Shown in pieces: positions 24,272-43,811 of a stretch of DNA of 64,000 nucleotides. The DNA comes from an uncultured Chloroflexia bacterium (GTDB lineage Bacteria > Chloroflexota > Limnocylindria > Limnocylindrales > CSP1-4), in NCBI GenBank assembly GCA_963707215.1, contig CAVPPB010000001.1, forward strand, positions 832,001 through 896,000, in the 5' to 3' direction. Numbering within the stretch: the stretch's first letter is position 1; every line of letters starts with the position of its first letter. Under the pieces are notes generated by a model that was not told the DNA's origin, searched no databases, and was given only the letters and a program-made list of their open reading frames with translations. A program made the position numbers and the translations under genes.

Positions 24272-24733
24272 ATGGCGACCATCCCCGCGACCGACCAGGG
24301 CGGCGGCGTCCCCCGCCGACGGTTCCTGCGCTTCCTGCTCGGCTTCTCCGTGGTCTCGACCCTGGCCATGATCGCGGCCCCGGTCGTGGGCTTCCTCCTG
24401 CCCCCCAAGACCACCGGCGGTGGGGGCGGCGGCAAGATCCTGGTCGGGACGATCGCCGACATCCCGCTGGGCCAGGGCAAGGTCGTGCCCGTGGGCAGCA
24501 GCCCCGCGATCATCATCAACACGGACCAGGGGGTGAAGGGCTTCTCGGCCATCTGCACCCACCTGGGCTGCATCGTCGCCTGGGACCAGGGCGCCGCCAA
24601 CATCGTCTGCCCCTGCCATGACGGCCGCTTCAACGCCACGTCGGGGGCCGTCGTCTCGGGTCCTCCGCCGTCCGGCCTGCCCCCGGTCGAGGTGTCGGTC
24701 GAGGGCGAAGAGATCTACGTCGTGAGCGCTTGA
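24272..24733 (+). CDS. qcrA: Rieske [2Fe-2S] subunit of a menaquinol:cytochrome c oxidoreductase
   Basis: Tat RRRFL plus TM helix; CTHLGC, CPCHDGRF, GPPP. Confidence 0.9.
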   Translation: MATIPATDQGGGVPRRRFLRFLLGFSVVSTLAMIAAPVVGFLLPPKTTGGGGGGKILVGTIADIPLGQGKVVPVGSSPAIIINTDQGVKGFSAICTHLGCIVAWDQGAANIVCPCHDGRFNATSGAVVSGPPPSGLPPVEVSVEGEEIYVVSA

Positions 24734-24735
24734 CG

Positions 24736-25840: not shown

Positions 25841-27313
25841 ATGCGGATCGGGTCGGACACGCAGCGCCGCCTCCGCCATCTCCGCCTGGCCGTTCCCGCC
25901 GGCCCGATCATCCTGCTCGTCCTCGTCCTGGGCGGCGGTCCGGCGGCGGCCCAGGATCCGGAGCCCACGCCGACCCTCATCCCGGGCCCGCCGGCACCGA
26001 CGCCGATCGCCCACCCGGGTGACTCCGGCGATGACCAGTGCTACGCCTGCCACGTGGAGCTCGACGACCGGCAGCAGGCGATCTCCGAGGCGTGGGAGGC
26101 GAGCATCCACGGCGCCGGCGGCATCGGCTGTGCCGACTGCCACGGCGGCGATCCGAGGTCGGACAAGATCACCGTTGCCATGTCCGAGGAGGCCGGCTTC
26201 ATCGGCATCCCGTCACGCGACGTGACGGTGGGGGTCTGCGGCAGCTGCCACAGCGACCCGGAGCGGATGGGCCAGTACGGCCTCCCCACGGACCAGTACT
26301 CGAAGTACTGGACCAGCGTCCACGGCCAGCGCCTCCTCGAGGCGGACGACACCCGGGTCGCCATCTGCATCGACTGCCACGGGTCCCACGCGGTCAAGAA
26401 GGCTTCCGACCCGACGGCCGACGTCTACCCGCTCAACGTCCCCCAGATGTGCTCGCGGTGCCACTCGGATCCGTCGCTCATGGAGCCGTACGGCATCCCG
26501 ACGGACCAGTACGACGTCTACGAGCAGAGCATCCACGGCCAGGCGCTCATCGGGAACCAGGACGTCCGGGCGCCCTCGTGCACGTCGTGCCATGGCTCGC
26601 ACTCCGCCCAGCCGCCGCGCAGCTCCGAGGTCGTCGACGTCTGCGGGAAGTGCCACACCGCGACCCAGGACCTCTACCTCGAGAGCCGGCATGCCGAGCT
26701 GGAGACGGTCGCGCCCAAGTGCTGGACCTGCCACGGGACGCACGACGTGGCCAAGTCGAGCGAGGCGCTATTCCTCCACCCCGCGGGCGAGATGCCCGAC
26801 TACGACTGCACGACCTGCCACGAGCCACCCGACATGACCCTGAAGCTGAGCATCGAGCAGTTCGCGAACGAGGCCGATCGCCGCTGCGACACCTGCCACC
26901 ACCCCGAATCGGTGATCTACCCGCAGGTCGTCGCCATCCATGACGCCCTGGGCGGCGCCAGCGGAGCCCAGGCCTCGGCCGAGGAGAAGATCGCCAAGGC
27001 CCGCGGCCTGGGCATGCTCGTCGGCGACGCCGAGGTGACCCTCACCGAGGCGAAGACCGCCTATATCCAGGGCCAGGCCGCGGTCCACACGACCAAGCTG
27101 ACGACCGTCACCGCCCACACCGACGAGGCGGTCGCCAAGGCGGCCCGGGCCGAGGAGCTGGCCCAGGCGAAGCTCGACGAGAGCGACTTCCGCCGGCTGG
27201 CGATGATCGTCGTCATCGCCCTCATCCTGGTCAACGTCGTCATCCTCTACGTCGTCCTGCGCCGGATCGAGCACAGCCCGAACGAGGGCCCACCGCCCGA
27301 GCCGTCGCCATAG
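25841..27313 (+). CDS. Membrane-anchored decaheme cytochrome c
   Basis: Signal peptide; 10 CxxCH (CYACH, CADCH, CGSCH, CIDCH, CSRCH, CTSCH, CGKCH, CWTCH, CTTCH, CDTCH); helical stalk; C-terminal TM. Confidence 0.92.
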   Translation: MRIGSDTQRRLRHLRLAVPAGPIILLVLVLGGGPAAAQDPEPTPTLIPGPPAPTPIAHPGDSGDDQCYACHVELDDRQQAISEAWEASIHGAGGIGCADCHGGDPRSDKITVAMSEEAGFIGIPSRDVTVGVCGSCHSDPERMGQYGLPTDQYSKYWTSVHGQRLLEADDTRVAICIDCHGSHAVKKASDPTADVYPLNVPQMCSRCHSDPSLMEPYGIPTDQYDVYEQSIHGQALIGNQDVRAPSCTSCHGSHSAQPPRSSEVVDVCGKCHTATQDLYLESRHAELETVAPKCWTCHGTHDVAKSSEALFLHPAGEMPDYDCTTCHEPPDMTLKLSIEQFANEADRRCDTCHHPESVIYPQVVAIHDALGGASGAQASAEEKIAKARGLGMLVGDAEVTLTEAKTAYIQGQAAVHTTKLTTVTAHTDEAVAKAARAEELAQAKLDESDFRRLAMIVVIALILVNVVILYVVLRRIEHSPNEGPPPEPSP

Positions 27314-27511
27314 GCCCGGGGTCGGCCGCGGAGCGACCCTCGGGTCGCCACCGGGTCGGCCGGTCCGGACCGCAACGCAGGCGTCCCCGAAGGCGAGCGA
27401 CGGTCCCGTCGCGGACCGGCGGATCGGCCTGTGCGTCGGGGCCGCACGGTCCCGCGGGGGGCGGGCCGGACGGCACTGTCCGACATATTCGCGGATACGC
27501 ATGGTCGGGGC

Positions 27512-29317
27512 ATGCACCTGCCCCGCTGGGCCCGCGACCTGGAGCTCCTGAAGTGGATCGGCGTCATCCTGCCGATCGTCTTCATCTGGGTCTTCGAGCT
27601 CGTCCGCTTCTTCGTCGTCGAGGAGAGCGTCGGCGGCACCGAGACCCACGTCGTCTCGGCGCTCGTCATGGCCGGTGCCGTGGTCCTGTTCGGCATCGGG
27701 ATGGCCGCCCTCATCGACCGGACCGAGCGCGAGCTCGTCCGCCAGAACCGCGACTTGACGGCCACCCGCGCGGTCAGCGAGGCCGTCCGGGGGAACCGCC
27801 CGCTGCCGGAGGCCCTCGCCGAGGCCCTGGAGGGGCTGGCCCGCGAGACCGGCGCCGTCGCCGGCGTCATCCGGGTGCCCGGGGACGACGGTCGCGAGCT
27901 CGTGACGCGGCAGCCCCGGACCGTTCCGGCGGGCCTGGACTGGGCCGGGGCGCTCCTCGACGAGCCGGCGTCGACCCGTGCCGACGGCCCGCGCTACAGC
28001 GAGCGACGCGAGTTGGACACGACCCTTCTCGACCTCCCGCTCGCCTCCCGGGGGCAGCGCCTGGGATCGCTGCGCCTTGTCTTCCATCCCGCCCAACGAC
28101 CCGATCTCTCCGAGGAGGCGCTGTCCGACATCGCCGACGAGCTCGCCACCGCCATCCGGCTCCACCACCTGGTCGAGGACCTCCGGCGGCGCGAGCGGGA
28201 GCGGGCCGCCCTCTACGAGGTCGCCCTCCAACTCACCGAGCGGAGCGAGACGCGCCCGGCGCTCGACTCGATCGCGGAGCATGCTCGTGGACTGCTGGTG
28301 GCGGATCGCGCGGTCGTCTGCCTGGCCGAGCCCGACGCGGCGACCCGGTCCCGGCACGCGGCCGAGCGCCTGGCGCTCGCCGACGACGGTTCCGTCTGCC
28401 TGCTGGCCCAGGCTGGCGACGAGCCCGGCCACCGCAACCCCCTGTGCCCCGTTCAGATGGAGCGCGCTGGGAGCCAGTGGATGGCCCGACCGCTCCGCAG
28501 CGCCGACGGTCACCTCGGGGAGCTCTGCGTGGTGCGGGAGCAGGGTCCGGCCTTCTCCGACGCCGATCGGTCGCTGCTGGCCGCCCTGGCCGACATGGCC
28601 GCCATCGCCGTCACCACGGCCCGCCTCAAGGAGGCCGAGCAGCAGTGGACGATCGTCGCCGAGCGCGACCGTATCGCCCGCGAGCTGCACGACAGCCTGG
28701 CCCAGGTCCTGGGCCACATCCACCTGCGGCTGCGCGACATCGAGACCCGGCTCGACGGCGCCGCCCCGATCATCGGGGCCGAGCTGGCCGACCTGGCCGG
28801 CGTCGCCGACGAGGCCTACCGGGACGTCCGCGAGGCGATCCTGGGGTTGCGCGAGACGATCTCGTCCGAGGGCGGATTGGAGGGAGCGCTCCGCGAGTAC
28901 ATCGCCAAGTACGCCCGCCAGACGGGCATCAAGGCGAGCCTGGTGTGCGACGAGACCGCCCGGGCGGCGCTGCCGCCGCGGGCCGAGGTCCAGCTGCTCC
29001 GCGTCGTCCAGGAGGCCCTGACGAACGTCCGCAAGCACGCCGGCGCGACCCGGGTCGTCGTCCGGATGCGCTGCCCCGGCGGGATGCCGATCGTCGAGGT
29101 CGAGGACGACGGTGCCGGGTTCGACCCTTCGCGGCTGGAGAAGTCCTTCAGCGGCGGGTTCGGCCTGACCTCGATGCGCGAGCGCGTCGAGCAGGTCGGC
29201 GGTACCCTCGAGCTGCATACTGCCCCCGGTGAGGGGACCCGGATCGTGGTCCGCCTCCAGCCAGAGGACCCTCGTGTCGCACCAGCCACCACGTCTCCGG
29301 ATCCTGCTGGTCGATGA
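27512..29317 (+). CDS. Membrane sensor histidine kinase (2 TM, GAF-like domains, HisKA_3/NarX type)
   Basis: ERDRIARELHDSLAQ, QEALTNVRKHA, EDDGAGFD, FGLTSMRER. Confidence 0.92.
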   Translation: MHLPRWARDLELLKWIGVILPIVFIWVFELVRFFVVEESVGGTETHVVSALVMAGAVVLFGIGMAALIDRTERELVRQNRDLTATRAVSEAVRGNRPLPEALAEALEGLARETGAVAGVIRVPGDDGRELVTRQPRTVPAGLDWAGALLDEPASTRADGPRYSERRELDTTLLDLPLASRGQRLGSLRLVFHPAQRPDLSEEALSDIADELATAIRLHHLVEDLRRRERERAALYEVALQLTERSETRPALDSIAEHARGLLVADRAVVCLAEPDAATRSRHAAERLALADDGSVCLLAQAGDEPGHRNPLCPVQMERAGSQWMARPLRSADGHLGELCVVREQGPAFSDADRSLLAALADMAAIAVTTARLKEAEQQWTIVAERDRIARELHDSLAQVLGHIHLRLRDIETRLDGAAPIIGAELADLAGVADEAYRDVREAILGLRETISSEGGLEGALREYIAKYARQTGIKASLVCDETARAALPPRAEVQLLRVVQEALTNVRKHAGATRVVVRMRCPGGMPIVEVEDDGAGFDPSRLEKSFSGGFGLTSMRERVEQVGGTLELHTAPGEGTRIVVRLQPEDPRVAPATTSPDPAGR

Positions 29318-29981
29318 CCAGCCCCTCTTCCGCAAGGCCCTCGCGAGCCTGATCTCCGGCCAGTTCGACCTCAACGTCGTCGGCGAGGCCAGCGACGGGC
29401 GTGAGGCGCTGGAGCAGGTCCGCAACCTCCGACCCGACCTGGTAGTCATGGACGTCCAGATGCCCGGCGTAGACGGGATCGGCGGGGTCAAGGCCATCCG
29501 GACGGCCGGGATCGACGTCCCCATCGTCATGCTCACCATCTCCGACGAGGACGACGACCTCTTCGAGGCCGTCCAGGCCGGCGCCAACGGCTACCTGCTC
29601 AAGAACATGCGGCCGGAGCAGATCTTCGAAGGCATCCGCGGCGCGGCCAAGGGCGAGGCCCCGGTCGCCGGCGCTGTCGCCGGCAAGCTCCTCGAGGCAC
29701 TCCGCCACGGCGGGGTGGCGCCCAGCCGGGTCGCCACCGACGCCACGCCCGAGGAGATGTCGCTGACCCGTCGCGAGGCGGAGATCCTCCAGCTGATCGC
29801 GGCCGGCCTGTCCAACAAGGAGATCGCCGCTCGCCTGACGATCACCGAGGGCACGGTCAAGAACCACGTCCACCACGCCCTCGAGAAGCTCCACCTGACC
29901 AACCGGGTCCAGGCCGCGGCCTACGCGGTCCGCCACGGCTACGGTCGCGGGGACGGCACGGGATCCGAGCCGGCTGGCTGA
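29274..29981 (+). CDS. NarL/LuxR-family response regulator
   Basis: ILLVDDQ, DLVVMDVQMP, GYLLK, LTRREAEIL...GLSNKEIA...TVKNHV. Confidence 0.93.
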   Translation: MSHQPPRLRILLVDDQPLFRKALASLISGQFDLNVVGEASDGREALEQVRNLRPDLVVMDVQMPGVDGIGGVKAIRTAGIDVPIVMLTISDEDDDLFEAVQAGANGYLLKNMRPEQIFEGIRGAAKGEAPVAGAVAGKLLEALRHGGVAPSRVATDATPEEMSLTRREAEILQLIAAGLSNKEIAARLTITEGTVKNHVHHALEKLHLTNRVQAAAYAVRHGYGRGDGTGSEPAG

Positions 29982-30656: not shown

Positions 30657-31139
30657 ATGAGCCTTCCTTCCGGCCACCGCATGCCCCGCCGCCGCGCGCT
30701 CCTCGTCATCGGATCGAGCGTCGCCGCCATCGGCGCCACTCCCCTCGCCCTGGCCGGCTGCGAGCCGCCGGTGCCGGTGGACACGACGTTCGAGCTCGAC
30801 CCGGCAAGCCTGCCCGTGGGCGAACCGACGCTCATCGGCTTCGAGTTCGAGAAGCCCGACGGGTCGATCGGCCAGGGCTCGGCCTGGTTCCTGCGCAGCG
30901 ACGACGACGCGCTCGTTGCCTACGACCCGCGCTGCACCCACCAGGCTTGCGAGTACGCCTGGGAGCCGGCCCAGGCGCAGTTCACCTGCGTCTGCCACGA
31001 GGCCGCCTTCTCCCTGGACGGCGAGGTCTTGTTCGGCCCGCCGCCACGGCCGCTGGCTCGGTTCCCGATGGTCGTCAGCGGGACGTCGGTGACCCTCACG
31101 GTCCCCTCGAACCTGCAGGCGCCCAAGACCGAAGGCTGA
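30657..31139 (+). CDS. Second Rieske [2Fe-2S] protein (probable Tat lipoprotein)
   Basis: RRRALL plus LAGC; CTHQAC, CVCH, GPPPRPL. Confidence 0.85.
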   Translation: MSLPSGHRMPRRRALLVIGSSVAAIGATPLALAGCEPPVPVDTTFELDPASLPVGEPTLIGFEFEKPDGSIGQGSAWFLRSDDDALVAYDPRCTHQACEYAWEPAQAQFTCVCHEAAFSLDGEVLFGPPPRPLARFPMVVSGTSVTLTVPSNLQAPKTEG

Positions 31140-31369: not shown

Positions 31370-32365
31370 ATGTTCCGGGTCACGTCCCTGACCGCGATGT
31401 CGGACCGGCAGCTCGACCGCTGGATCAAGCGGATCGCGGCGCTGGCGCTGATCGCGCTCGTGGCGTTCGTGGCGTTCTACGTCTTCGACCGCTACCGCGA
31501 TCCCGGCCCGACGATGGTCGACCGCAACATCATCGCCCTCGAGGAAGTCGTCCGGGCCGACCCGGCCGACATCACCTCGCGGGGCCAGCTCGCCGACCTC
31601 TACACGGCCGCCGGCCGCTACGAGGATGCGATCGCCCAGTACGGGGCGATCCTCGAGACCGGCAAGGAGACCGAGCTGGCCCACTTCGGGCGGGCCAAGG
31701 CCTACCAGGCCAGCGGGCAGCTCGATGCCGCGGCCGCGGACTTCGAGGTGGTCGTGGGCATCGCCAAGGAAGGCGAGATGGCCCACGTCGACCCGATCCT
31801 GAATGCCGCCTACTTCGGTCTCGGAGCGATCGCCCTCGAGCAGGGCCGCCCGGACGACGCGGTCACCCACCTCACGGCGGCGGTCAACATCAAGCGGGCT
31901 GACGCCGACTCGTGGAACCTCCTCGGGGCGGCCCTGGTCGACGTCGGCGAGCCCGCCAAGGCCATCGAGGCCCTCCAGAAGGCCGTCGCCTTCGTGCCGC
32001 TCGGGTGGGTCGAGCCATACGTGACGATGGCCGAGGCCTACACCGCGCTCGGCCAGCCGGCCCGGGCGGAGTGGGCCAACGCGATGGCCGATCTCTCCGC
32101 CGGCAAGCCCGACGAGGCGAGGACCCGGCTCCTCGCCATCACCGAGGGCGAGACGGCCCTCGACGCCGCCATCGGCCTGGCGCTCATCGCCGAGACCGAG
32201 GGCGATGGGCCAGCGGCGGTGGAGTGGTACACGAAGGCGCTGGCGATCGATCCCGAGAACGCGGCCGCCCGGCTCGGTCTCGGCAGGGTCAGCGACCCAG
32301 CCGCCAGCGCGGCTCCACTGCCCGAGCTGCCCGAGCCCGGTGCCGTGGAAGGCGGCCAGGGCTGA
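31370..32365 (+). CDS. Membrane-anchored TPR protein (start may be 31397)
   Basis: N-terminal TM then multiple TPRs (LADLY..AGRYEDA, AYFGLGAIA, WNLLGAAL, ALAIDPENAAA). Confidence 0.85.
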   Translation: MFRVTSLTAMSDRQLDRWIKRIAALALIALVAFVAFYVFDRYRDPGPTMVDRNIIALEEVVRADPADITSRGQLADLYTAAGRYEDAIAQYGAILETGKETELAHFGRAKAYQASGQLDAAAADFEVVVGIAKEGEMAHVDPILNAAYFGLGAIALEQGRPDDAVTHLTAAVNIKRADADSWNLLGAALVDVGEPAKAIEALQKAVAFVPLGWVEPYVTMAEAYTALGQPARAEWANAMADLSAGKPDEARTRLLAITEGETALDAAIGLALIAETEGDGPAAVEWYTKALAIDPENAAARLGLGRVSDPAASAAPLPELPEPGAVEGGQG

Positions 32366-33432
32366 TGACGACCCCGCAGATGACGGCCGACACCGTCCCG
32401 CCGGCGGCTGACACCGCCCCCGACGCCCCCACCCCGACCGAGCTCTCCCCGGAAGAGGAGCAGAAGCGGCGACGGCGCAAGGCCATCATCTTCTTCCTGC
32501 TCCTCGGCTTCCTGGGGATCCTCCTGCTCCTGCTGCTCTGGTACCTGCTGTTCCGGCAGCCGCTGCCGATCGTCCCGCCGATCCCGGAGGCTCAGCTGCC
32601 CGGCTATGCGACCAGCGTCTACGGGGCCTCCAGCCCCGCCGGTGTCGCGGTGACGCCGGCCGGCGACCGCATCTACGTCACCGAGACCGGCGGCGACTAC
32701 GGGATCAAGATCTTCGACGGCGGCGGCGTCCAGGTCGGGGCCATGGAGTTCCCGGCCGACACGGGTACCGGGCACGTCCCGGTGTACATCGCGATCGACC
32801 CGCTCTCCAGCGAGGTGTACGTCTCCGATCGGCCGACCGGCTCGATCCACATCTTCGACCGCGACGGGAAGTACCAGCGCCAGTTCAACCCCGGCGAGGA
32901 GATCCCCGGCTGGCAGCCGCTCGGCCTGGCGTTCGACCCGAACGGCAACCTCTATGTCACCGACCTGGGTGGCGCGACCCAGAAGGTCCTGGTCTTCGAT
33001 CGCACCGGCACGGTCGTCCGGACCATCGGAGCCGACGCGGGCCTGGACTTCCCCAACGGGGTGGCCGTTGATGACGCAGGCCTGGTCTACGTCACCGACA
33101 GCAACAACGGCCGGCTGCTCATCTTCGGCCCCGATGGCTCGATCTCGGGCCAGATCGGCCGCGGCGCCGGCGCCGGCAATCTCGGGCTTCCCCGCGGCCT
33201 GGCCATCGATGGCCAGGGTCGCGTCTTCGTCGTCGACACCAGCGGGAACGGCGTCTTGCTGTACCGGACGCTGGGCGAGGACGAGCGGCGACCCGAATAC
33301 GTGGGGTTCTTCGGCGGTCACGGGCTCTCCGACGGCCAGTTCGCGTTCCCGATGGGCGCGGCCGTCGACGACCGGGGCCGCGTCTATGTGGCCGACACGG
33401 CCAACGGCCGTGTCCAAGTCTGGAGCTACTAG
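32365..33432 (+). CDS. Membrane-anchored NHL-repeat (6-bladed beta-propeller) protein
   Basis: TM helix then PAGVAV, PLGLAFD, FPNGVAVD, LPRGLAID, FPMGAAVD...YVADTANGRVQ. Confidence 0.9.
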   Translation: MTTPQMTADTVPPAADTAPDAPTPTELSPEEEQKRRRRKAIIFFLLLGFLGILLLLLLWYLLFRQPLPIVPPIPEAQLPGYATSVYGASSPAGVAVTPAGDRIYVTETGGDYGIKIFDGGGVQVGAMEFPADTGTGHVPVYIAIDPLSSEVYVSDRPTGSIHIFDRDGKYQRQFNPGEEIPGWQPLGLAFDPNGNLYVTDLGGATQKVLVFDRTGTVVRTIGADAGLDFPNGVAVDDAGLVYVTDSNNGRLLIFGPDGSISGQIGRGAGAGNLGLPRGLAIDGQGRVFVVDTSGNGVLLYRTLGEDERRPEYVGFFGGHGLSDGQFAFPMGAAVDDRGRVYVADTANGRVQVWSY

Positions 33433-33512
33433 CTCATGTGTAGAGAGGGAGGTGCGACCCGTCCAACGTCGATCCGCCGGCTGGGCCGGCTACCCACACA
33501 GCACACGACAGA

Positions 33513-33880
33513 GAGAAAGGAGGTAAGGACAGTGAAACGCCTGGCGCTCCTGATGACAGGCGGCGCCATCTGGCTGTTCCTTGCCGCACTCCCTGCCCTC
33601 GCTGACGGCGGACCCCACGTCTCGACGATCAACAACGGGTCGCTGGGGATCAACGCCGACAGCTGTGCCGGGTGCCACCGTGCGCACACGGCACAGGGTC
33701 CATTCCTCATCAATGCCGCCGACGAGGAGGCCCTCTGCCTGACGTGCCACGGCGCGGCCGGCACGGGCTCGACCGTCGACGTCATGACCGGCGTCCAGTA
33801 CACCCTGGGCGGAGACGGCCTCCGCGGTGGTGCCATCCTTGGTGCTGCCCGCAACGGCGGCTTCGACCAGGCCCGGATCG
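33513..33880 (+). repeat. 368-bp direct repeat, copy 1 (RBS plus 5' part of hexaheme cytochrome A)
   Basis: Matches 34838-35205. I see only two synonymous differences (cctgcc vs cccgct). Confidence 0.93.
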
Positions 33881-34789
33881 ACAGCTCGAACGCGACCCGC
33901 TCGTCGTACCTGCGGAATGCGACCGCCGTGTCGCAGCACCCGAAGGTCAGCGTGCTGGGCGCGGGCGAGGACGTCACCTCCGCGCACCTCGAGCCTGCCC
34001 GACAACGGCCTGACGATGCCGGGCATCGCCTGGGGCAACGGTGACTTCACGGCTGCGGTGGATCCGGGGCCGGCCTTCGAACTGAGCTGCGCGTCCTGCC
34101 ACAACCCGCATGGGAACGGGCAGTACCGCATCCTCAACCCGATCCCGAATGGGTCGGGCGCCACCACCGGCGTCGAAGTCGCCGACGCGGCCCTGCCGCC
34201 GGCTGGTGACACGCGCAACTACACGGTCATCCAGGAACTCGATCGCCGACGGCGGCTACGCTCTCTCGCGAGCGACGTCGTGGCCGGTGGCTTCGCCGCC
34301 ACCGACGGCGACTACTTCCGTCGGAACGTGCCGTGGGCACCCGAGATCGTCGACCCGGTCAACTGCGACCCGACGATCTTCCCGCGGCCGGATTGCCCGG
34401 TCGATACGAACAATGATGCACCGAACGGTGACCCCGACTTCAACGTCGCGATCACCGCCTGGTGCAGCCAGTGCCATACCCGGTACCTGGCCGATGGCAA
34501 CACCCCGGTCGCAGGCAACCCCTACGAGACGGACTCCGGTGACGCCATCTTCACGTACCGCCACCCGACGCGCTCGAACCGGACGTGCAACGTCTGCCAC
34601 GTCTCGCACGGCTCGAACGCCACGATGGATGGCACGTTCAGCGTCAACGCGACCTACCCGGATGGGACGGTCTCAGCCAGCAGCCGGCTCCTGAAGGTCG
34701 ACAACCGTGGCACCTGCCAGGCTTGTCACGATCCGACAGGGACCATCACGGCTGGCACGATCATCGGACCACCCGCGGGAGTGCCGTAG
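33532..34789 (+). CDS. Secreted hexaheme cytochrome c, OmcS-like, copy A (indels near 33993 and 34233-34265)
   Basis: AGAAAGGAGGT RBS, Sec signal; CAGCHRAH, CLTCH, LSCASCHNPHG..YRIL, WCSQCH, YRHP, CNVCHVSH, CQACH. Confidence 0.88.
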
Positions 34790-34797
34790 AAGCTCAG

Positions 34798-34829
34798 TCA
34801 CCGGAGGCCCCCTCGGGGGCTTCCGGTGA
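34798..34829 (+). terminator. Strong intergenic stem-loop between the two hexaheme genes (no U-tract; terminator or mRNA stabiliser)
   Basis: TCACCGGAGGCCCC-CTCG-GGGGCTTCCGGTGA, 14-bp stem with one G-U pair. Confidence 0.6.
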
Positions 34830-34837
34830 TCTCAGGC

Positions 34838-35205
34838 GAGAAAGGAGGTAAGGACAGTGAAACGCCTGGCGCTCCTGATGACAGGCGGCGCCATCTGGCT
34901 GTTCCTTGCCGCACTCCCCGCTCTCGCTGACGGCGGACCCCACGTCTCGACGATCAACAACGGGTCGCTGGGGATCAACGCCGACAGCTGTGCCGGGTGC
35001 CACCGTGCGCACACGGCACAGGGTCCATTCCTCATCAATGCCGCCGACGAGGAGGCCCTCTGCCTGACGTGCCACGGCGCGGCCGGCACGGGCTCGACCG
35101 TCGACGTCATGACCGGCGTCCAGTACACCCTGGGCGGAGACGGCCTCCGCGGTGGTGCCATCCTTGGTGCTGCCCGCAACGGCGGCTTCGACCAGGCCCG
35201 GATCG
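34838..35205 (+). repeat. 368-bp direct repeat, copy 2 (RBS plus 5' part of hexaheme cytochrome B)
   Basis: Matches 33513-33880. Confidence 0.93.
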
Positions 35206-36045
35206 GCTCGAGTGAGGTCTACCGGATCTCGACCGCGAGCGGCTCCCTTCGGACGAAGGTGCCGGTCCTGGCGACTCCGGCGGACGTCACGTCGTCCCAC
35301 CTCGAGCTGCCCGACAACGGCCTGACCAATCCTGGGCAACGCCTGGGGCAACGGCCCGGACGGGTCGGGTGCCGGCCGAGCGTCGAGCTGAGCTGCGCGT
35401 CCTGCCACAACCCGCATGGGAACGGGCAGTACCGCATCCTCAACCCGATCCCGGACCCCGCCGCGACGGCCGCCGGGGCCTTCTACCCGGTCGCGGCGCC
35501 GGGCGCTCTGGTCACCGACGCCGCGCTGCCACCGGCACGGCGACACCCGCAACTACACGGTCATCCAGACCGTCGCGAGCGCGCCGACCTTGCTGGCAAG
35601 CGACGTGCCGAGCGTTCCCGGCTACACGCCGACGGCGGGAGACTACTTCCACCGTGGCGTGCCGTGGAACACGCGGACGAACAACGACGCTCCGAACGGG
35701 CTGACCAGCTTCAACAGCGAGATCACTGCGTGGTGCAGCGCCTGCCACACGCGGTACTACTCGGAGGACGACGGGACCAACCCGACCCCGAACACCATCT
35801 TCAAGTACCAGCACAACACCCAGAGCAACCGGGCCTGCACGACCTGCCACGTGTCCCACGGCTCGAACGCCCAGATGGACGGCACCTACTCGTCGACGTA
35901 CACCTACCCGGATGGGCGGGTGTCGGCGAACAGCCGCCTCCTGAAGATCGACAACCGCGGCACCTGCCAGGCCTGCCATGACCCGACAGGGACCTTCGGC
36001 CCCAGCAACAGCGTGGGCCCGGTCCCGGTGCCGCTCGTCCCGTAA
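34857..36045 (+). CDS. Secreted hexaheme cytochrome c, OmcS-like, copy B (indels near 35335-35375 and 35537)
   Basis: CAGCHRAH, CLTCH, LSCASCHNPHG..YRIL, WCSACH, YQH, CTTCHVSH, CQACH. Confidence 0.88.
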
Positions 36046-36164
36046 TCCGAACCCCACTCGGCCCACCCCGGACCGAGCAAGAGGATCGGCTCACCGATCG
36101 TGGTGGCCGTGGCCGAGACCGCGGCCACCACGACGAACCAGATGAAAGTCGAGCGTCCTGACGG

Positions 36165-38963
36165 ATGAAGCGCCCACCGGCGCACCGAACCGGCCCAGCT
36201 GCCGCCGCGATCCTCCTGGTCGCGTCGCTGCTGCTGTCCGTCACCCCGGTCGTGCCCCGGGTCGGCGCCATCGACCCGACCCCGGTGCCGAGCGCGAGCG
36301 AGCCTGCTTCGCCGACGCCAGCACCCGCCCCGACCCCCACCGATCCGCCGTCCCCCGGCCCCTCCCCGACACCGTCGCCCACGCCGTCGCCCGACCCGAG
36401 CTCGAGCCCGGTTCCGACGCCGCCGTCGTCGCCGTCACCAGCCCCCACGTCGCCTCCGTCGGCGAGCCCCTCGCCGACGCCGAGCCCGGTTCCGAGCGAC
36501 CCCCCGTCGCCGCAGCCGTCGCCGACGCCCAAGCCATCGCCGAGCCCGCTTCCACTCGATGCGGTCGTGCTCCAGTCGGCGGATGCCCCTGAGGTCGGGG
36601 CTCGCCGCGTGGACCCCGGCGCGCTCGTCGCCATCACCCTCACGATCCTCGCCACGGGTCCGGTCACCGACGCCGAGCTCGTCGAGCAGGTGCCCATCGG
36701 CTGGCTCGTCGTCGATGCGGCCGGCGGCACCTACGATCTGGCCGAGCGGTCGGTCCGCTGGTCCGTGTCGAGCCTGGTGGCCGGCAGTACCTGGGAGCGA
36801 AGGGTCGTCGTTCGAGCGCCATCGCTCGGAGCCGGCGACCCGGTGCTCGATGCTCGCTTCGAGGCGAAGCTCGTCGGGCGAAGTGATCGGGTCCTCGCCG
36901 CGCCGCTCGACCTGCTCGTCGCGCCGGAGCTCGTCATCGCCGAGACCACGTTCGCCACCATCGACGACCTGAGCCAGGTCCCGACCTACCTCACCCCCGG
37001 CGAGGCCCTTGACGCGGTCGCAGCCTTCGACCGGATCCGGCTCCGATTCCAGGTCCGCAACCCTGATTCCATCCCCGTCACGATCGTCCCCGACCTCGAG
37101 TACCGGGCCGTAGGTGACGCTCGCTTCGTCGCCTTGCCGGCCGGCGACCCGGCGCGTGGGGTCCCCTTCTACCTGGCGACCGAGTGGCGACCGGCTGGCA
37201 AGGGGAAGACCGGCACGGTCGTAGGTCCGCCCACGGAACCCATCCCGCCTGGCGACCTCAAGGCCGACGTCAAGGACGACCCGTCCCAGCGACCTTCCCA
37301 GGGGCGCCGGTTCATGGGCACGGACCCGGAGGCCGAGGTCATCGTGCCGGCGAACAGCTACACGGAGATCGAGTTCACCCTTCGGGCTTCGATCGACGCC
37401 CCGTACGGGCGCTCGTTCGAGCTTCGGCTGGTCGATGACGGCCGACCGGTGGCGGCGGCCGTCATCGCCTCGCTCGCGACCGGCCCGAGGCCGCCGCTCG
37501 TGCTGACGCCCGGTCAGCGCAACGGCCTGGATGTCGGGGCGCCGGTCGACGCCGGGGCCGCGCCGGCGTCGCTGTCGCCGACCGCTGCTCGGCAGAGCGG
37601 CGTCGACCACGCCCTGCTGCCGCCCGACCGCATCGTCGACGCACGGAGTGCGGTCGCGACCGGGCTGCCGCGCTACCGACTCGCGATCGCCCAGCTCACC
37701 GAGCCCGATGCCGCGGGACCTCTCGCAGCCCCCTTCGATTCGCCCCACGTCCCGGATACGTCCCTGGTGACCGACACCTGCGCCCGATGCCACAGCGCAC
37801 ACACCGGACAGGGACCCATGCTGCTGCCCGACCCGAACCCCCAGAGCTCCCTCTGCCTGTCATGCCACGACGGGAGCGGCTCGGACATCGACGTGGCCGG
37901 GCGGTACGCCGACCAGGACGTGCCCGCGAACGACGAGGCCACTCGGTCCACCTACCGCCACGACGCGCTGGCGCCGTCGGTCCACACGCTGGCCGGCGAC
38001 GACGAGTTCGGCGGGCTCCTCGAGCGCCACAGCGAGTGCGCCGACTGCCACAACCCGCACAACTCGGTGGCGACCGATGCGACGCAGACGACGACCGGCT
38101 GGACGGTGTCCGGCCGCCAGGCCGCCCTCTCCGGGGTCGCCGTGACCAACGGCCCGGCGGGGACCGCCCCCACATACGCCTTCCTGGACGGGAGCGCGAA
38201 TGCCCAGCCGACCCGCGAATACGAGATCTGCCTCAAGTGCCACTCCGGCTACACCGTCCTGCCCTCGAACGTCGGCCAGCCGCCGTCCCGGTACGCCCTG
38301 GACAAAGGCCTCGAGCTCAACCCCGGCAACGCCTCCTACCACCCGGTCGAGGCCGCGGGCACCAACCAGACGGCAGCCATGGCCAACGGGCTGGCCGGCA
38401 CCTCGCCCTACAAGCTCTGGGACTTCACGACGGCAGGGACGGTCCGCTGCGTCAACTGCCACGCCGATCCGGCGGTCCTGGACCCGGACCAGCCGCCGAC
38501 AGCCGGCAGCGCCCTGGCCCCGCACGTGAGCCAGAACCGGGGGCTCCTGCTCCAGCCATACCGCGACAGATCGCTCAAGCCCGTCGGCGAGCCGTATTCG
38601 GCCGCGGACTTCGCTCTCTGCTACGTCTGTCACTCGGAGGCGCCGTACCTGAACATCAGGACGGGGGCCACGGCGTTCGACTTCCACGCCCTGCACGTTT
38701 CGGACCTGCCGGGGGGCAGCGGCGGGCTGGACATCGACACGCCCGGCGCCGGGCAGGGCTACGCGGTCTGCGCCGAGTGCCACTTCCGCCTCCATTCGAC
38801 CGCCCAGGCCGTCAACGATGGCGACCGGGACAACAGCCGACTGGTGAACTTCGCCCCCAATGTCGTGCCGAACAACGGGGTGCTTGAGTGGCAGAAGGTC
38901 GGCGCGGGCGGGACCTGCACGCTGACCTGCCACGGCGAGCCTCACCGGAACGCCGACTACTAG
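36165..38963 (+). CDS. Large secreted multidomain cytochrome: signal, Pro/Ser/Thr linker, beta-sandwich-like domains, octaheme domain
   Basis: [38 protein letters not shown] plus atypical CTLTCH. Confidence 0.88.
36275..36555 (+). repeat. Low-complexity PSP/PTP linker-coding region
   Basis: About 90 aa of repeated PSPTP/PPSP units. Confidence 0.75.
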
Positions 38964-39241
38964 ATGGAGCGGCCTGCCCGGCGCATCTGACCACCGCGAG
39001 CCCAGCAGGACGGTCCCACCCGCGCCATCAGGGGAATCGGTGCGAAGGCACGCCAGCGTGCACGGTCGCGGCTCGGGGCCGACGGAACCCCGTCGCCGTC
39101 ACGCCTGATGACGCGCACCCCAAGCACTCACGTCGCCGCGGCGACCGCTCCCGAGCGTTGACCCAGGTCGGCGGACGATGGTGGCGGAGCCCGGGGATCG
39201 GGAGCGTCGTCCTGGCCCCCGCCTTGTCGCCCGCTCCTGCG

Positions 39242-39261
39242 CATATATCCAGGGATACATG
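39242..39261. promoter_or_regulatory. Palindromic candidate regulator-binding site upstream of the maturation operon
   Basis: CATATATCC-AG-GGATACATG (8/9 dyad); a related site, CATATTC-GC-GGATACG, lies at 27484-27499. Confidence 0.45.
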
Positions 39262-39473
39262 GCCCGGGCCGTTCCTCCATCCCCCGGCCGGCCGAATGGC
39301 CCCCGAAATGTGCCCGCTGACGGATAGGTCGGCGGCCTGGCCCTCCGGACAATCGCCTCAGGTGTCAATGGGCTCGCGACGCGATCGCGAGCAGGAAGAG
39401 AGGGCGATCCGATGGAAGCCATGCGAAGCGGTGGTCGGACGCGCGCCGCGCGTCCCCGCCGGAGCGGTCGGTC

Positions 39474-40644
39474 ATGACCGCTCCGACCGCGCGATCCGAC
39501 TCCCACCAGCAGGTCCTGCTGGCTCGTCTGGGTCTCGACGACCGGGCCACGCCCGAGGACGTCGAGGTCACCCATGACGAGCTCGTCGGCATTCCTGACG
39601 ACCGCACCGCGGTCGCTCCGCGCCTGGGCCCGTGTCCAGGCCGAGGCGGCCGACGAGGCCTTCGCTCTTCTCACGGACCCGGACGCACCCGGGATCCCCG
39701 GAGCCCTCTCGGGATCCAAGGGACGTGCGACGGTCCAGCCCGACGGGCCGGCGACACCTCCGGCCCGTCGGGCACCCTCGCCCGCACCGGAAGCGGCCGC
39801 CGTGGCCGCCGCGGCTGTCGCGGCCGAGGGCGCCATCGACGACGGGGCGGAGGAGCTCGAGGCGGACGAGGACGTCAGCTTCGAGGAACTCCTCGCCGAG
39901 GTCACCCCGGGCACCCACCGGGAGAGCCTGGCCCCGAAGGGCTCGAAGCCCAAGGCGAAGGGGAAGGGAGCCGCCGAGGCGGCCCCGGTCGCCGCGGCCA
40001 CCGTCGCGACGGGCCAGCCGGCCGGTGGCAGCTCCCGGGTCAAGCGCTTCGGCATCATCGGCGCCGTCGCCGTCGCGGCGGTCGTCGTGGTCGCCGGGGT
40101 CTACCAGCTCGGCGCGGCGTCGAACTCGCCCGGCAGCATCGCCTCTGCGAGCCAGCAGCCGCAGGCGAGCGCCGGCGTCGACCAGGCCCGGGTCTCCGAC
40201 CTGATGGCCAAGGTCCAGGCCGACCCGACCGATAGCGCCTCGATGATGCAGCTGGGTGACGTCTTCTACGTCGCCGGCGACTTCGGTGCGGCCGCCACCT
40301 GGTTCGGCAAGGCGCTGGCGGTCGACCCGACCGACAGCGACGCCCAGCTCGCCCTGGGGGCCGCCCTCTTCAACGCCGGCGATATGGAGGGTGCCGAGGC
40401 GGCCTGGATCGCCGTCGTCGAGCGCGAGCCCGACAACGTCGAGGCCCATTACGACCTCGGCTTCCTCTATCTGAACCAGGAGCCGCCGGACATGGACGGC
40501 GTCCAGCGCGAGTGGGGCAAGGTCGTCGAGCTGGCCCCCGACTCGGATGTCGCCCAGACGGTCAAGGCCCACCTCGACGCCTTCGAGAGCCCGGCGGCCA
40601 GCACGGCCCCGAGTGCCTCGCCTGAAGGATCCGTCGAGCCATGA
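39474..40644 (+). CDS. TPR protein, CcmI/NrfG-like (frameshift near 39590)
   Basis: Internal TM then TPRs (MQLGDVFY, ALAVDPTDSDAQLALG, EAHYDLGFLY); overlaps the ccdA start. Confidence 0.8.
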
Positions 40645-41369
40645 TCGAAGTCGGGATCCTGGTCGCGTTCCTCGGCGGGATCCTCTCGTTCGCTTCGCCC
40701 TGCTGCCTGCCGCTCGTGCCCGCCTACGTGGGCTACATGGTCGGCACGGCCACGGAAGGACCCGGCGCCCGGCGCCGCACGCTCCTCCACGGGCTAGCCT
40801 TCGTCCTCGGCTTCTCGGTCGTATTCGTGGCCTTCTGGGCCTCCATCGGGCTCGTCGGCTACGTGCTGGCCGATCAGGCCTGGATCCTGCGGCGGCTCGG
40901 CGGGGTCGTGCTCGTCGTCCTCGGCCTCCAGGTGGCCGGGGTCATCAACCTGCGGGCGCTCTGGCGCGACACTCGGCCGATGCCGGCGATGGCCGCCGGC
41001 CCCGGCCTGGGGACGGCCACGACGTCGGCTCCCGGCTACGGGCGGTCGCTCGCCTTCGGCACCTTCTTCGCCGCCGGCTGGAGCCCGTGCATCGGGCCCA
41101 TCCTCGGCGGGATCCTCGGCCTCGCGACGGTGACCGCCAGCGTCGCCCAGGGGACCGTCCTCCTGGTCGCCTACGCGGCCGGACTGGCGATCCCCTTCCT
41201 TGCCGTGGCCCTCGGTGCCGACTGGGTCGCCCACCGGCTCACCTGGGTCGGGCGTCACCACCGAGCCGTTTCCATCATCACCGGCGCCTCGCTCGTCGCG
41301 ATCGGCGTCCTGATGCTCACCGACACCCTGACCCGGCTGGCGGCCCTGACGTCGCCGCTGGGCATCTGA
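40641..41369 (+). CDS. ccdA: Cytochrome c biogenesis protein CcdA
   Basis: SFASPCCLPLVPAY and GWSPCIGPIL. Confidence 0.93.
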   Translation: MIEVGILVAFLGGILSFASPCCLPLVPAYVGYMVGTATEGPGARRRTLLHGLAFVLGFSVVFVAFWASIGLVGYVLADQAWILRRLGGVVLVVLGLQVAGVINLRALWRDTRPMPAMAAGPGLGTATTSAPGYGRSLAFGTFFAAGWSPCIGPILGGILGLATVTASVAQGTVLLVAYAAGLAIPFLAVALGADWVAHRLTWVGRHHRAVSIITGASLVAIGVLMLTDTLTRLAALTSPLGI

Positions 41370-41383
41370 CCGGAGGACATGCG

Positions 41384-42916
41384 ATGACCCAGCAGGCACG
41401 GACCGGCCGCCTCCCGGGCGACGCGTCCCCGGCCCCGGCCGAGGTCGAGCGCGATTCCGGGTTCGGGATCGACGACCTCCTGGAGCGCGCCTGGCACCTC
41501 CTCACCTCGATGAAGTTCGGGGTGTTCATCATCCTGATCCTGGCCGGCCTCGGGCTCATCGGCTCGATGATCATCCAGGCCCCACCGGGGATCGCCGCCG
41601 ACCCGGCCGCCAAGGCCGACTGGCTGGCCGAGATCGCCCCCAAGATCCTGCCCGGCATCGAGTTCCTGCAGTCGATCCCGATCGTGGGAGCGCTGGTCCC
41701 GACGGTCCGCTACGGCGACGTCTCGGGCACCTTCGACGCGCTCCAGATCTTCAGCATCTTCGACTCGATCTGGTTCCGGGCCCTGGGGGCGCTCCTGACG
41801 GCGAGCCTCATCGCCTGCTCGTCGCACCGGCTGCCGGGTCTCTGGAAGTCGGCCACCAAGCCGCACGTCGCCATCGGCGAGGCGTTCTTCACCCACGCCC
41901 CCCAGCATGAGTTCATCTCGGTCAAGGGGACGCCGGAGGAGATCCAGCAGCGGGTCACCTCGGTGATGAAGAAGCACCACTACCGGGTCGTCACCGAGGA
42001 CGACGGGGTGACCCACCTCTACGCCGACAAGTTCCGCTGGGGGCCCTTCGGGACGGTCATCGGCCACCTGAGCCTGGTCGTCATCCTGGCCGGCGCGATC
42101 GTCGGCTCGATGTTCGGTTTCCGGGACAACGGTTTCGTGGTGGCGGAGGGCTCGACGGTGCCGGTCGCCACGGATGACGGCATCTCGGTCGAGCTGATCC
42201 AGTTCCAGGACGCCTACTACACCGACACCGGCGCCCCGGCCGACTACGCCAGCGACGTCGTCGTCTACCAGGACGGTGCCGAGGTCGCCCGCCATACCGT
42301 CCGCGTCAACGAGCCGCTCCGCTACGGCGGCCTGTCGTTCTACCAGTCGTTCTACGGCCCGGCCGCGGCGATGAGCGTCGCCGACGCCGAGGGCACCGAG
42401 GTCTTCGCCGACGGCGTCCCGCTCGCCTGGAGCGATGGCGACTCCGGACGCCGCGTCGGCACCTTCGTCATCCCCGGCGCGAACCTGACCGTCTGGGTCA
42501 TCGGGACCGCCGGGACCGGTGACACGGTCGTCGCCCCGGGCCAGATGCGCGTCGAGGTCTACAACGGCAGCGACGGCAGCCCGGTGGCCGGCGAGACGAT
42601 CGACCAGGGTGACACGGTCGAGGTGGCCGGCTATGGCTTCACCTTCCAGCGGGAGATGCAGTTCACCGGCCTGTCGGTCGCCCGGGACCCGGGCACGCCG
42701 CTCATCTGGCTCGGTTCCGGTCTCATGATCGCTGGCTTCGTCCTGGTCCTGATGTTCCCCCACCGGCGGGTCTGGGGTCGCCTGGTCACCCGGCCGGGTG
42801 GCCGCGGGACCCTCTCCCTGGCCGGAGCAGGCCGACGCGACGTCGGCTCGAACACCGAGTTCACCGACCTGGTCACCGAGATCCGGGCGGCATCCACCAC
42901 GCCGACGGGAGGCTGA
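41384..42916 (+). CDS. resB: System II cytochrome c maturation protein ResB/Ccs1
   Basis: LTSMKFG, IFDSIWF, GHLSLVVIL, VRVNEPLRYGG..FYQSFY, FTGLSVARDPG. Confidence 0.9.
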   Translation: MTQQARTGRLPGDASPAPAEVERDSGFGIDDLLERAWHLLTSMKFGVFIILILAGLGLIGSMIIQAPPGIAADPAAKADWLAEIAPKILPGIEFLQSIPIVGALVPTVRYGDVSGTFDALQIFSIFDSIWFRALGALLTASLIACSSHRLPGLWKSATKPHVAIGEAFFTHAPQHEFISVKGTPEEIQQRVTSVMKKHHYRVVTEDDGVTHLYADKFRWGPFGTVIGHLSLVVILAGAIVGSMFGFRDNGFVVAEGSTVPVATDDGISVELIQFQDAYYTDTGAPADYASDVVVYQDGAEVARHTVRVNEPLRYGGLSFYQSFYGPAAAMSVADAEGTEVFADGVPLAWSDGDSGRRVGTFVIPGANLTVWVIGTAGTGDTVVAPGQMRVEVYNGSDGSPVAGETIDQGDTVEVAGYGFTFQREMQFTGLSVARDPGTPLIWLGSGLMIAGFVLVLMFPHRRVWGRLVTRPGGRGTLSLAGAGRRDVGSNTEFTDLVTEIRAASTTPTGG

Positions 42917-42926
42917 GGAGCGTTCC

Positions 42927-43811
42927 ATGTACAAGATGTCGGAATACGCGTTCATCGCCGCGATCCTGGCCACCGGCCTGGCGCTGCTTCTGTACCTCGC
43001 CTATGCCCTGTCCGGGCTGCGGGCGGCCAGGATGCAGACGGCCGGCACCGGCACGCGGACGGGAGTCCTGGCCTTCGCCGCGGGACCCCGGACCGCCGCC
43101 CTCGGGCGCTACGCCACGATCCTCGGCTGGCTGGGCTTCGCCTTCCTGACGGCCTGGCTCGTCTTCCGGACGTTCGCCACCGGTCACGGCCCCTTCGCCA
43201 ACATGTACGAGTTCAGCGTTTCGTTCGCCTGGGGCATCCTCGGCGCCTACTACTGGTTCGAGCACCGCTACCACCAGCGGATGCTGGGCCTCTTCGCCCT
43301 GCCGGTCGCCCTGGCCCTGATGCTCTACGCGATGACGATCCCGTCCGACGTGGAGCCGCTGGTCCCGGCCCTCCAGAACAACCTGCTCCTGTCGGTCCAC
43401 GTCGCGGTCGCGATCGTCGCCTACGGTTCGTTCACCATCGCCGCCGCGGCAGCCCTGCTCTACCTCATCCAGCCAGAGGGCGGCCGCTGGGGCCTGCCCA
43501 AGCCCGAAGTGCTCGACGAGATCGGCTACAAGGCCATCGTCGTGGGCTTCCCCTTCCTGACCGCGGTCATCGTCCTGGGCGCCATCTGGGCCGACGTGGC
43601 CTGGGGCCGCTACTGGAGCTGGGATCCCAAGGAGACGGCCTCGCTCGTCACCTGGCTCATCTACGGCGCCTACCTTCACGCCCGAGTCGTCCGCAACTGG
43701 CGCGGCAAGAAGTCCGCCTACCTGCTCCTCCTGGGCTTCGGGGCGACCCTCTTCACCTACTTCGGCAACCTCTGGTTCGGCGGCCTCCACAGCTACTCGG
43801 GGCTGGGCTGA
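42927..43811 (+). CDS. ccsA: System II cytochrome c synthase ResC/CcsA
   Basis: PFANMYE, PALQ, WGRYWSWDPKET, YLHAR, GLHSY. Confidence 0.93.
   Translation: MYKMSEYAFIAAILATGLALLLYLAYALSGLRAARMQTAGTGTRTGVLAFAAGPRTAALGRYATILGWLGFAFLTAWLVFRTFATGHGPFANMYEFSVSFAWGILGAYYWFEHRYHQRMLGLFALPVALALMLYAMTIPSDVEPLVPALQNNLLLSVHVAVAIVAYGSFTIAAAAALLYLIQPEGGRWGLPKPEVLDEIGYKAIVVGFPFLTAVIVLGAIWADVAWGRYWSWDPKETASLVTWLIYGAYLHARVVRNWRGKKSAYLLLLGFGATLFTYFGNLWFGGLHSYSGLG

Follow-up and report, generated by a model that had tools for sequence, protein, structure and literature searches.

Could two tandem genes for hexahaem c-type cytochromes in an uncultured member of the Limnocylindria (Chloroflexota) encode the subunits of an extracellular haem wire like that of Geobacter? 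The genes, here called gene 1 and gene 2, lie on the forward strand of a stretch of 64,000 nt (GCA_963707215.1, contig CAVPPB010000001.1, positions 832,001 to 896,000; hereafter the window), taken from a metagenome-assembled genome (MAG) of 3.26 Mb in 5 contigs with about 72% G+C. An earlier note, made from the letters of the window, had described them as relatives of OmcS of G. sulfurreducens that keep the histidine used in polymerisation, in an unexpected lineage. The cytochrome nanowires solved so far come from a handful of Desulfuromonadia and archaea, and the genes bear on how far nanowires are spread across bacteria and how they would be assembled in cells without a Geobacter-type envelope. 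The Limnocylindria are abundant but barely cultured Chloroflexota of soil, freshwater and estuarine sediment. If the wire reading is true, it would mean a separate and widespread form of extracellular electron exchange in lineages not considered electroactive, in the service of mineral or humic reduction or of iron or manganese oxidation.

Two hexahaem cytochrome genes and their family

As judged from their sequences, both genes encode Sec-exported, bis-His hexahaem c-type cytochromes. With an X placed at each frame break, the read-through products of gene 1 and gene 2 have 419 and 397 amino acids, respectively, each with six CxxCH motifs and no stop codon, and they are 74.4% identical to each other; that of gene 1 shares 88.5% identity with P0002, a homologue of 419 amino acids that is intact. 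An AGGAGG lies 8 nt 5' of each start codon (33518-33523 for gene 1, 34843-34848 for gene 2). The sole hydrophobic segment found in a hydropathy scan comprises the N-terminal residues 3-21 and ends in ALA-DGGPH, with the cleavage site after ALA, while inspection and the same scan found neither a lipobox cysteine after this site nor a later transmembrane-like segment in either product. The earlier note had thus rightly seen two secreted hexahaem proteins of about 400 amino acids with a strong ribosome-binding site and without a transmembrane or lipid anchor. The haem motifs that it listed are also present in both genes, and this pattern is far beyond chance; intact relatives number in the thousands. 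Both genes almost certainly encode secreted hexahaem cytochromes, which are probably functional and OmcS-like. In this genome, the gene caller gave only a fragment of 257 amino acids (P0001).

The curated libraries recognise only the paired-CxxCH domain in these proteins, and no OmcS-specific model matched among those of NCBIfam and Pfam. Paired_CXXCH_1 (PF09699) is found twice in gene 1 (E 5.4e-9 and 3.7e-10) and twice in gene 2 (E 5.7e-9 and 1.6e-7), with 31-40 bits for all four gene pieces at a cut-off of 20.6, and intact relatives score 53-60 bits with TIGR01905 (cut-off 25.2). The part matched by both models is the N-terminal CxxCHxxH-(16 aa)-CxxCH.

Of the 2908 candidates in a family search, 1363 proteins match at E<=1e-3, most of them 400-430 amino acids long, and the number of 50%-identity clusters that match the family is 2886, 1405 and 476 at thresholds of 1e-3, 1e-10 and 1e-30, respectively. 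In contigs from one genome per species, 395 of the 593 candidate stretches hold a gene for a relative, and 76 loci were kept. According to their labels, 72 of these belong to the Chloroflexota, three to the Actinomycetota and one to the Deferrimicrobiaceae. Most of the 72 are MAGs of Limnocylindria type, and 13, with the closest locus, L066, among them, are explicitly assigned to the Limnocylindria or Limnocylindrales. By these sequences the family is large, unnamed and centred on the Limnocylindria, with shorter relatives in the Actinomycetota. The latter, found in MAGs (L068:8001-8999 and L075:6803-8957), are short forms of about 320-345 amino acids without the stretch that separates the haem-3 from the haem-4 motif; they retain all 12 histidines and the TPR and NHL neighbours, and L075 carries two or three tandem copies. 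A literature search found no account of the family or of its gene island in the Limnocylindria, although a prior listing in Shen et al. 2025 or in supplements is possible; the available text of a preprint on the Chloroflexi supergroup treats only cytochromes with at least 20 haems (10.1101/2021.08.23.457424).

Many relatives have two tandem hexahaem genes, and a FastTree phylogeny of 88 sequences, midpoint-rooted and indicative only, contains both old and lineage-specific duplications. In the window, a direct repeat (Table 1) spans the ribosome-binding site and the first 116 codons in each gene, so that the two share an identical N-terminal 'plug' region. The repeat points to gene conversion in the recent past or to an effect of the assembly. 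In other genomes, the tandem copies are less alike at their 5' end than gene 1 and gene 2.

With respect to expression, eight of the 20 sequencing runs that contain part of the stretch are RNA libraries. One metatranscriptome holds 45 contigs that are 85-99+% identical to the locus; these are contigs of relatives and no proof that this copy is transcribed. The title of one MAG record with a related locus (L045) includes 'Mn-Chloroflexi', a possible hint at manganese cycling from the title alone.

Frame breaks in both genes

Gene 1 and gene 2 are not open throughout. The length of each is 1 mod 3, with frame switches inside, and tblastn with the intact P0002 divides each gene over two frames. 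The earlier note was correct that indels split both genes, but it understated their number: inspection of the three frames against intact homologues places three 1-nt indels in each gene (Table 1). For some of them there is evidence from other assemblies, in which the contigs aligned to the locus are from relatives, plus a few short pieces identical to the window. A 92%-identical short contig over 33797-34141, which covers the first indel of gene 1, is one base shorter than the window. For the compensating pair in gene 1, the stretch 34237-34266 reads ELDRRRRLRS in frame and a homologue-like SIADGGYAL in the alternative frame, and an approximately 90%-identical contig from an RNA library is without single bases at 34237, 34257 and 34264. 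A 99%-identical short contig spans the third indel of gene 2, aligning 151 nt to 152 nt of the window (35445-35596) with one mismatch and one gap. Programmed frameshifting was considered and ruled out, as there are three breaks per gene, four of the six forming compensating pairs, and the orthologues are intact in 86 of the 91 scorable relatives.

Probably, the six indels arose as errors in the consensus of a metagenome assembled from long reads, and the genes would then be intact in the organism. In a family alignment of 75 members, both read-throughs retain 80 of 80 invariant columns and 63 or 64 of 68 near-invariant ones; intact members retain 52-68 of the latter. Among the hexahaem genes at the 76 related loci, 86 have an open frame between the N- and the C-terminal motif, three are frameshifted and two contain a stop, while another 12 are without the C-terminal motif, mostly at contig ends. 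All five broken copies come from a single MAG series whose contigs are named in the style of Flye (5 of 50, vs. 0 of 41 elsewhere). Furthermore, essential genes of this assembly seem to contain indel errors as well, which fits its estimated completeness of 84.8%: on contig C3, the domains of dnaE (PF07733) and of a class I aminoacyl-tRNA synthetase (PF00133) are each divided over two open frames (G000:C3:1104766-1105969 and G000:C3:314999-316679), and a further synthetase match (C3:1126563-1127141) has an internal TAG. In the same genome, rpoB and secA are whole.

Alternatively, the frameshifts may be real, and both hexahaem genes recent pseudogenes in an island that is otherwise kept. The earlier note had named this as fatal to its proposal, but it is not borne out by read-throughs that keep every invariant residue, including all 12 histidines, and lack stops, nor by an assembly that splits essential genes too, and I regard it as unlikely. 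Its strongest argument is the density of the breaks: there are six within 2.45 kb, against none in the 12 flanking genes (about 13 kb), which align to the closest relative L066 in single full-length high-scoring segment pairs, and this is a local excess beyond general error alone. That the number of hexahaem copies varies between one and two among relatives would also suit gene decay, and the contrast between the MAG series, which speaks for assembly error, reaches a Fisher p of only 0.06. The best of the available sequencing runs contained 20% of the sampled words. The 88.5% identity of gene 1 to an intact homologue and the 99%-identical short-read contig that is one base shorter over one break are difficult to reconcile with decay. 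Most likely the locus, which is hypervariable and duplicated, was badly polished in an assembly from a mixed population. A consequence is that long-read MAG indels hide hexahaem genes from gene callers.

Likeness to OmcS in sequence and fold

At the level of sequence, the similarity to OmcS is not significant. A family profile (A1) searched against the PDB places OmcS (6ef8_A) second of 10 rows at E 0.067, in three co-linear stretches; a more diverse profile with the short forms from Actinomycetota added (A2) gives no gain over A1 (E 0.26), and the pieces of gene 1 as single sequences give E 2.2 or no match. The best sequence match with A2 is the paired-CxxCH module of a chain of the Mtr complex, 6r2q_A (E 2.9e-4). 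All of these results weigh against a specific kinship with OmcS. Several OmcS motifs are nevertheless visible in the 6ef8_A alignment (GPMLL...CLNCH, LHCSSCHDPHG, AYRILGG, WCANCH and CLSCHRAHASG), so that the claim of a common motif order holds for several co-linear motifs. It probably fails in one: HMMER aligns the family's CHNPHGNGQYRIL to OmcS CHDPHGK-YRRF and not to the later AYRILGG of OmcS, and therefore the 'YRIL = YRIL' equivalence is probably out of register.

The comparison of folds shows a different pattern. AlphaFold2 models without haems were used for a gene-1 type protein (P0002, pLDDT 71.6) and a gene-2 type protein (P0016, pLDDT 80.4). In VIA-align searches of 48161 chains, 6ef8_A is the lone top match of both models: P0002 aligns to it with Z 6.9 and a root-mean-square deviation of 4.4 A over 207 residues (22% identity), spanning 41-401 of the model and 1-407 of the chain, and the next chains reach Z 3.8 and 2.5. 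For P0016 the values are Z 7.8, 4.2 A, 209 aligned residues and 24% identity, with the next chains at Z 4.5 and 2.2. Only three chains reach Z>=2 in each search. There is thus a structural match to OmcS of moderate strength, found with two independent models, and among the solved structures OmcS is the closest to the predicted fold of both paralogue types. Foldseek with the haem-free P0002 model had no match at E<=0.001, and its first of 96 matches was again 6ef8_A, a weak one (E 0.36, TM-score 0.25).

I consider it likely that the predicted subunit fold is OmcS-like, although several observations speak for caution. A Z below 8 is 'middling' by VIA-align's own scale and may reflect a common arrangement, only about half of each model is aligned, the spacing of the haem motifs is unlike that of OmcS, and a beta-sheet block at about 88-147 has no stated counterpart there.

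Haem ligands and predicted self-association

Across 38 diverse members of the family exactly 12 histidines are invariant, six of them in CxxCH motifs and six others (H29, H52, H152, H193, H343 and H358 in P0002). By this count of conserved residues, they suffice for six bis-His haems. The interfacial haem of both OmcS and OmcE is ligated by a histidine of the adjacent subunit, as described in the available portions of two papers (PMC12954529, PMC9473688). In the family, the last histidine of the first CxxCHxxH motif is H52. It presumably corresponds to OmcS His16, which I take to be the ligand of haem 5 in the next subunit: with OmcS C9 placed on C45 of the family, His16 falls on H52. While the polymerisation histidine of the earlier note is indeed invariant, its retention is equally expected for a ligand in cis. 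As six bis-His haems need all 12 histidines, in cis or in trans, retention of H52 does not discriminate between the two.

A prediction of two copies points towards self-association. It was made with residues 25-419, the family alignment and four haems of 12, and passed the mark set by the tool, with ipSAE values of 0.62, 0.49 and 0.50, vs. 0.00 for the best of three controls; the pLDDT of the partner was no lower than 90, and the runs had at least 93% of the contacts in common. In calibration of the tool, this mark was reached by 20 of 30 solved homomers and by one of 23 single-chain proteins. The predicted interface is asymmetric, open-ended and head-to-tail. Copy 1 would contribute residues 317, 330-343 (with H343), 354, 366-375 and 388-411, including a cysteine each of the haem-5 motif (C354) and the haem-6 motif (C394) as well as the conserved tail (399-411), and copy 2 residues 28-59 (the haem-1 motif and H52), 95-97 and 193-195. 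The Pro-rich C-terminal tail, conserved across the family, lies within this predicted interface. H52 of copy 2 is predicted to contact residues 339 and 375 of copy 1, beside the haem-5 and haem-6 motifs, in a model with four haems only that may carry memory of 6EF8. The same applies to the score as a whole, which may echo memory of the solved OmcS filament, and the custom alignment and the four of 12 haems put the run outside the calibration; both facts count against a wire.

A possible haem wire, or carriers that do not polymerise

The mechanism that these observations suggest is as follows. The hexahaems would stand in the middle of a conserved island for electron transfer outside the cytoplasm (Table 1). 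Electrons may pass from quinol to Rieske/cytochrome b, a membrane-anchored decahaem and the hexahaem(s), and from there to a large multihaem protein at the surface and a redox partner outside the cell, with flow possibly in either direction. The membrane-anchored NHL propeller and the TPR protein may serve in assembly or docking, and System II would supply haem attachment. Subunits would stack head to tail, with the haem-1 region and His52 inserted against the haem-5/haem-6 region and the Pro-rich C-terminal tail of the next subunit, which would result in an OmcS/CwcA-type haem wire across the envelope. The gene content, the family, the synteny, the invariant ligands, the closest fold and a predicted asymmetric self-interface are what the analysis establishes; from these I infer trans ligation, polymer formation, conductivity and the physiological role. 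The head-to-tail wire or filament is the best-supported mechanism in terms of the models and is plausible, if a little short of an even chance, whereas the explanation as a whole, which is the best available, may be right or wrong with about equal probability. It is possible, though I would not call it probable, that Limnocylindria and some Actinomycetota build such wires, assembled by the NHL and TPR proteins and fed by the Rieske/cytochrome b-decahaem module. With its 12 invariant histidines and thousands of members, the family and its island form a testable candidate for a wall-spanning haem wire with feeder and assembly factors.

The hexahaems could also be extracytoplasmic carriers that do not polymerise, with H52 as a ligand in cis: monomeric, or in complex with either the NHL propeller or the surface multihaem protein, they would shuttle electrons between the Rieske/cytochrome b-decahaem module and the terminal partner. 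This is somewhat doubtful. In its favour, the CxxCHxxH...CxxCH at the N-terminus represents a generic module (PF09699/TIGR01905), the best PDB sequence match of which belongs to the non-homopolymeric Mtr complex, so that H52 could be an ordinary cis ligand, and the 12 invariant histidines would serve six haems equally well in cis. Similarity to OmcS in sequence is, as stated above, not significant. Moreover, according to the part of a study that was available, only OmcS of the four Geobacter paralogues is known as a wire, and models from sequence fail to single out nanowire formers across genera (PMC12977616), which argues against a wire here as well. However, carriers would not be expected to yield a head-to-tail self-interface that is reproducible while the controls give 0.00, nor to have a conserved Pro-rich tail within that interface, and OmcS, not MtrA, was twice the clear top match in fold. 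The resemblance to MtrA/DmsE-type Paired_CXXCH_1 proteins is a match at the domain level only, with Z 3.8 and 4.5 for 6r2q_A vs. 6.9 and 7.8 for OmcS. A further objection to the wire would be that the likeness to OmcS is convergent, as any chain of about 400 amino acids wrapped around a linear row of six haems might look alike without homology or a shared mode of assembly. The profile E-values of 0.067-0.26 and Z-scores in the range that VIA-align calls common would fit this, and OmcS and OmcE themselves are described, in the sections available of two papers, as alike in haem packing without similarity in fold or sequence (PMC13712944, PMC9473688). Convergence seems improbable, however, as the matches run co-linearly from one end of the chain to the other (model 40-401 vs. 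chain 1-407) at 22-24% identity, so few of the 48161 chains come near in either search, and the order of the three stretches aligned by the profile does not differ between the two proteins.

Comparison with known wires and their gene clusters

OmcS of G. sulfurreducens (PDB 6EF8/6NEF) and the present family have in common that they are secreted proteins of about 400 amino acids with six CxxCH motifs, bis-His ligation and a first motif CxxCHxxH. The predicted contact of haem-1 and its histidine with the haem-5/haem-6 region resembles the trans-His interface of OmcS as far as the available text describes it (PMC12954529, PMC9473688), and tandem paralogues and repeated duplication occur in both (PMC12977616, seen in part). 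The family differs in its haem-3/4, 4/5 and 5/6 motif spacing and its extra beta-sheet block, in the lack of significant sequence similarity, in its host, which is Chloroflexota, and in being known here from genes and models and not from filaments. It is also tied to Rieske/cytochrome b and System II genes, and neither an outer-membrane channel nor a prolyl isomerase was found among the genes scanned with Pfam. Among the proteins of the Geobacter osc operon, OscD is propeller-like. The operon is said, in the accessible parts of two papers, to provide folding, secretion and morphology factors for OmcS (PMC13194489, PMC12977616), with roles in folding for OscH, in secretion for OscEFG and in morphology for OscD (cited in PMC13194489). 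Candidates for such companions in the island are the NHL propeller (70 of the 76 loci) and the TPR protein (Table 1). A beta-propeller lipoprotein is included in the OmcE nanowire gene cluster, according to the excerpt available (PMC13712944).

The closest conceptual match comes from a Gram-positive organism. Faustino et al. 2021, in the text available, modelled Thermincola CwcA (Tfer_0075 / TherJR_1122), about 18% identical to OmcS, on 6EF8, as a polymer across the Gram-positive wall with haem 5 ligated in trans by the next subunit, and placed it in a chain that leads from a membrane decahaem via the hexahaem to a surface multihaem protein (PMC7911101). The Limnocylindria island has the same logic of decahaem, hexahaem and surface multihaem protein. 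CwcA is from Bacillota, however, and the part of that paper at hand describes the Thermincola pathway without a Rieske/cytochrome b module or an NHL propeller (PMC7911101). I liken the two by description and not by sequence; an Atlas cluster from Bacillota (339 amino acids, score 0.93) is a lead only. With respect to the host, which belongs to the Limnocylindria, the 'unexpected lineage' of the earlier note is a fair description, but the concept has a precedent in CwcA, at least in what the available text reports (PMC7911101).

The gene island

The genes around the hexahaems were annotated with Pfam, and their sequences define a conserved island of 12-14 genes in a common lineage of Chloroflexota (Table 1). 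That it is a hexahaem electron-transfer island is very probable. The counts over the 76 loci are lower bounds because many contigs are short. Directly 5' of a hexahaem gene, and adjoining it in 70 of the 76 loci, is the gene for the NHL propeller, the start of which overlaps the stop codon of the TPR gene. On the 3' side, the C-terminal half of the 932-aa multihaem protein has seven CxxCH and one CxxxCH (CTLTCH, residue 918). Its haem domain opens with a hexahaem-type CxxCHxxH...GPxLL...CLxCH module. The maturation genes are found in similar numbers of loci (CcmH-like TPR 50, ResB 49, CcdA 48 and ResC 47 of 76).

Table 1. Features of the hexahaem locus, with positions in the window
Feature	Positions	Strand	Remarks
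Cytochrome b	24730-25827	+	Pfam-based neighbourhood annotation
Decahaem cytochrome	25841-27313	+	N- and C-terminal hydrophobic segments
GAF/HisKA_3 histidine kinase and LuxR-type response regulator	27431-29981	+	in 49 and 51 of 76 loci
Rieske 2Fe-2S protein	30657-31139	+	in 46 of 76 loci
Membrane-anchored TPR protein	31370-32365	+	in 65 of 76 loci
Membrane-anchored NHL-repeat beta-propeller	32365-33432	+	PF01436 E 6.3e-34; transmembrane-like residues 37-55
Direct repeat	33513-33880 and 34838-35205	+	368 nt, ribosome-binding site and first 116 codons; 2 mismatches, abrupt divergence after
Hexahaem cytochrome gene 1	33532-34789	+	GTG start at 33532, TAG stop 34787-34789; Sec signal peptide, 6 CxxCH; three 1-nt indels
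Gene 1, indel 1	33990-33996	+	one extra base near 33994 (GAG C CTG); frame switch
Gene 1, indels 2 and 3	34237-34266	+	compensating pair, +1 near 34238 and -1 near 34263-34266
Stem-loop between gene 1 and gene 2	34797-34830	+	perfect 15-bp G+C-rich stem, no T tract 3'
Hexahaem cytochrome gene 2	34857-36045	+	GTG start at 34857, TAA stop 36043-36045; paralogue of gene 1; three 1-nt indels
Gene 2, indels 1 and 2	35336-35379	+	compensating pair, +1 near 35337 and -1 near 35376-35378; alternative frame restores AWGNG
Gene 2, indel 3	35535-35540	+	one extra base near 35538, before GDTRNY
932-aa multihaem protein	36165-38963	+	signal peptide; Pro/Ser/Thr-rich N-terminal half; in 49 of 76 loci
CcmH-like TPR, CcdA, ResB, ResC/CcsA	39574-43811	+	System II cytochrome c maturation

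A scan of 33300-36300 found no consensus promoter and no terminator. The stem-loop between the two genes has a predicted energy of -36.3 kcal/mol (z -4.07), and none of 200 shuffled sequences was as stable; it could be a transcript-stabilising or attenuating element. An open reading frame at 38888-39577 (229 amino acids) is probably not a gene, as its translation is Arg-rich and has no family match.

Just 3' of the maturation genes, 44463-46337 encodes a NapC/NirT-type cytochrome of 624 amino acids with 10 CxxCH and one transmembrane-like segment, a candidate for a second quinol dehydrogenase of the same pathway. Elsewhere in the genome there are two more genes for paired-CxxCH cytochromes, with matches at C2:165454-165564 and C2:168109-168228 in open frames of 675 and 481 amino acids, respectively.

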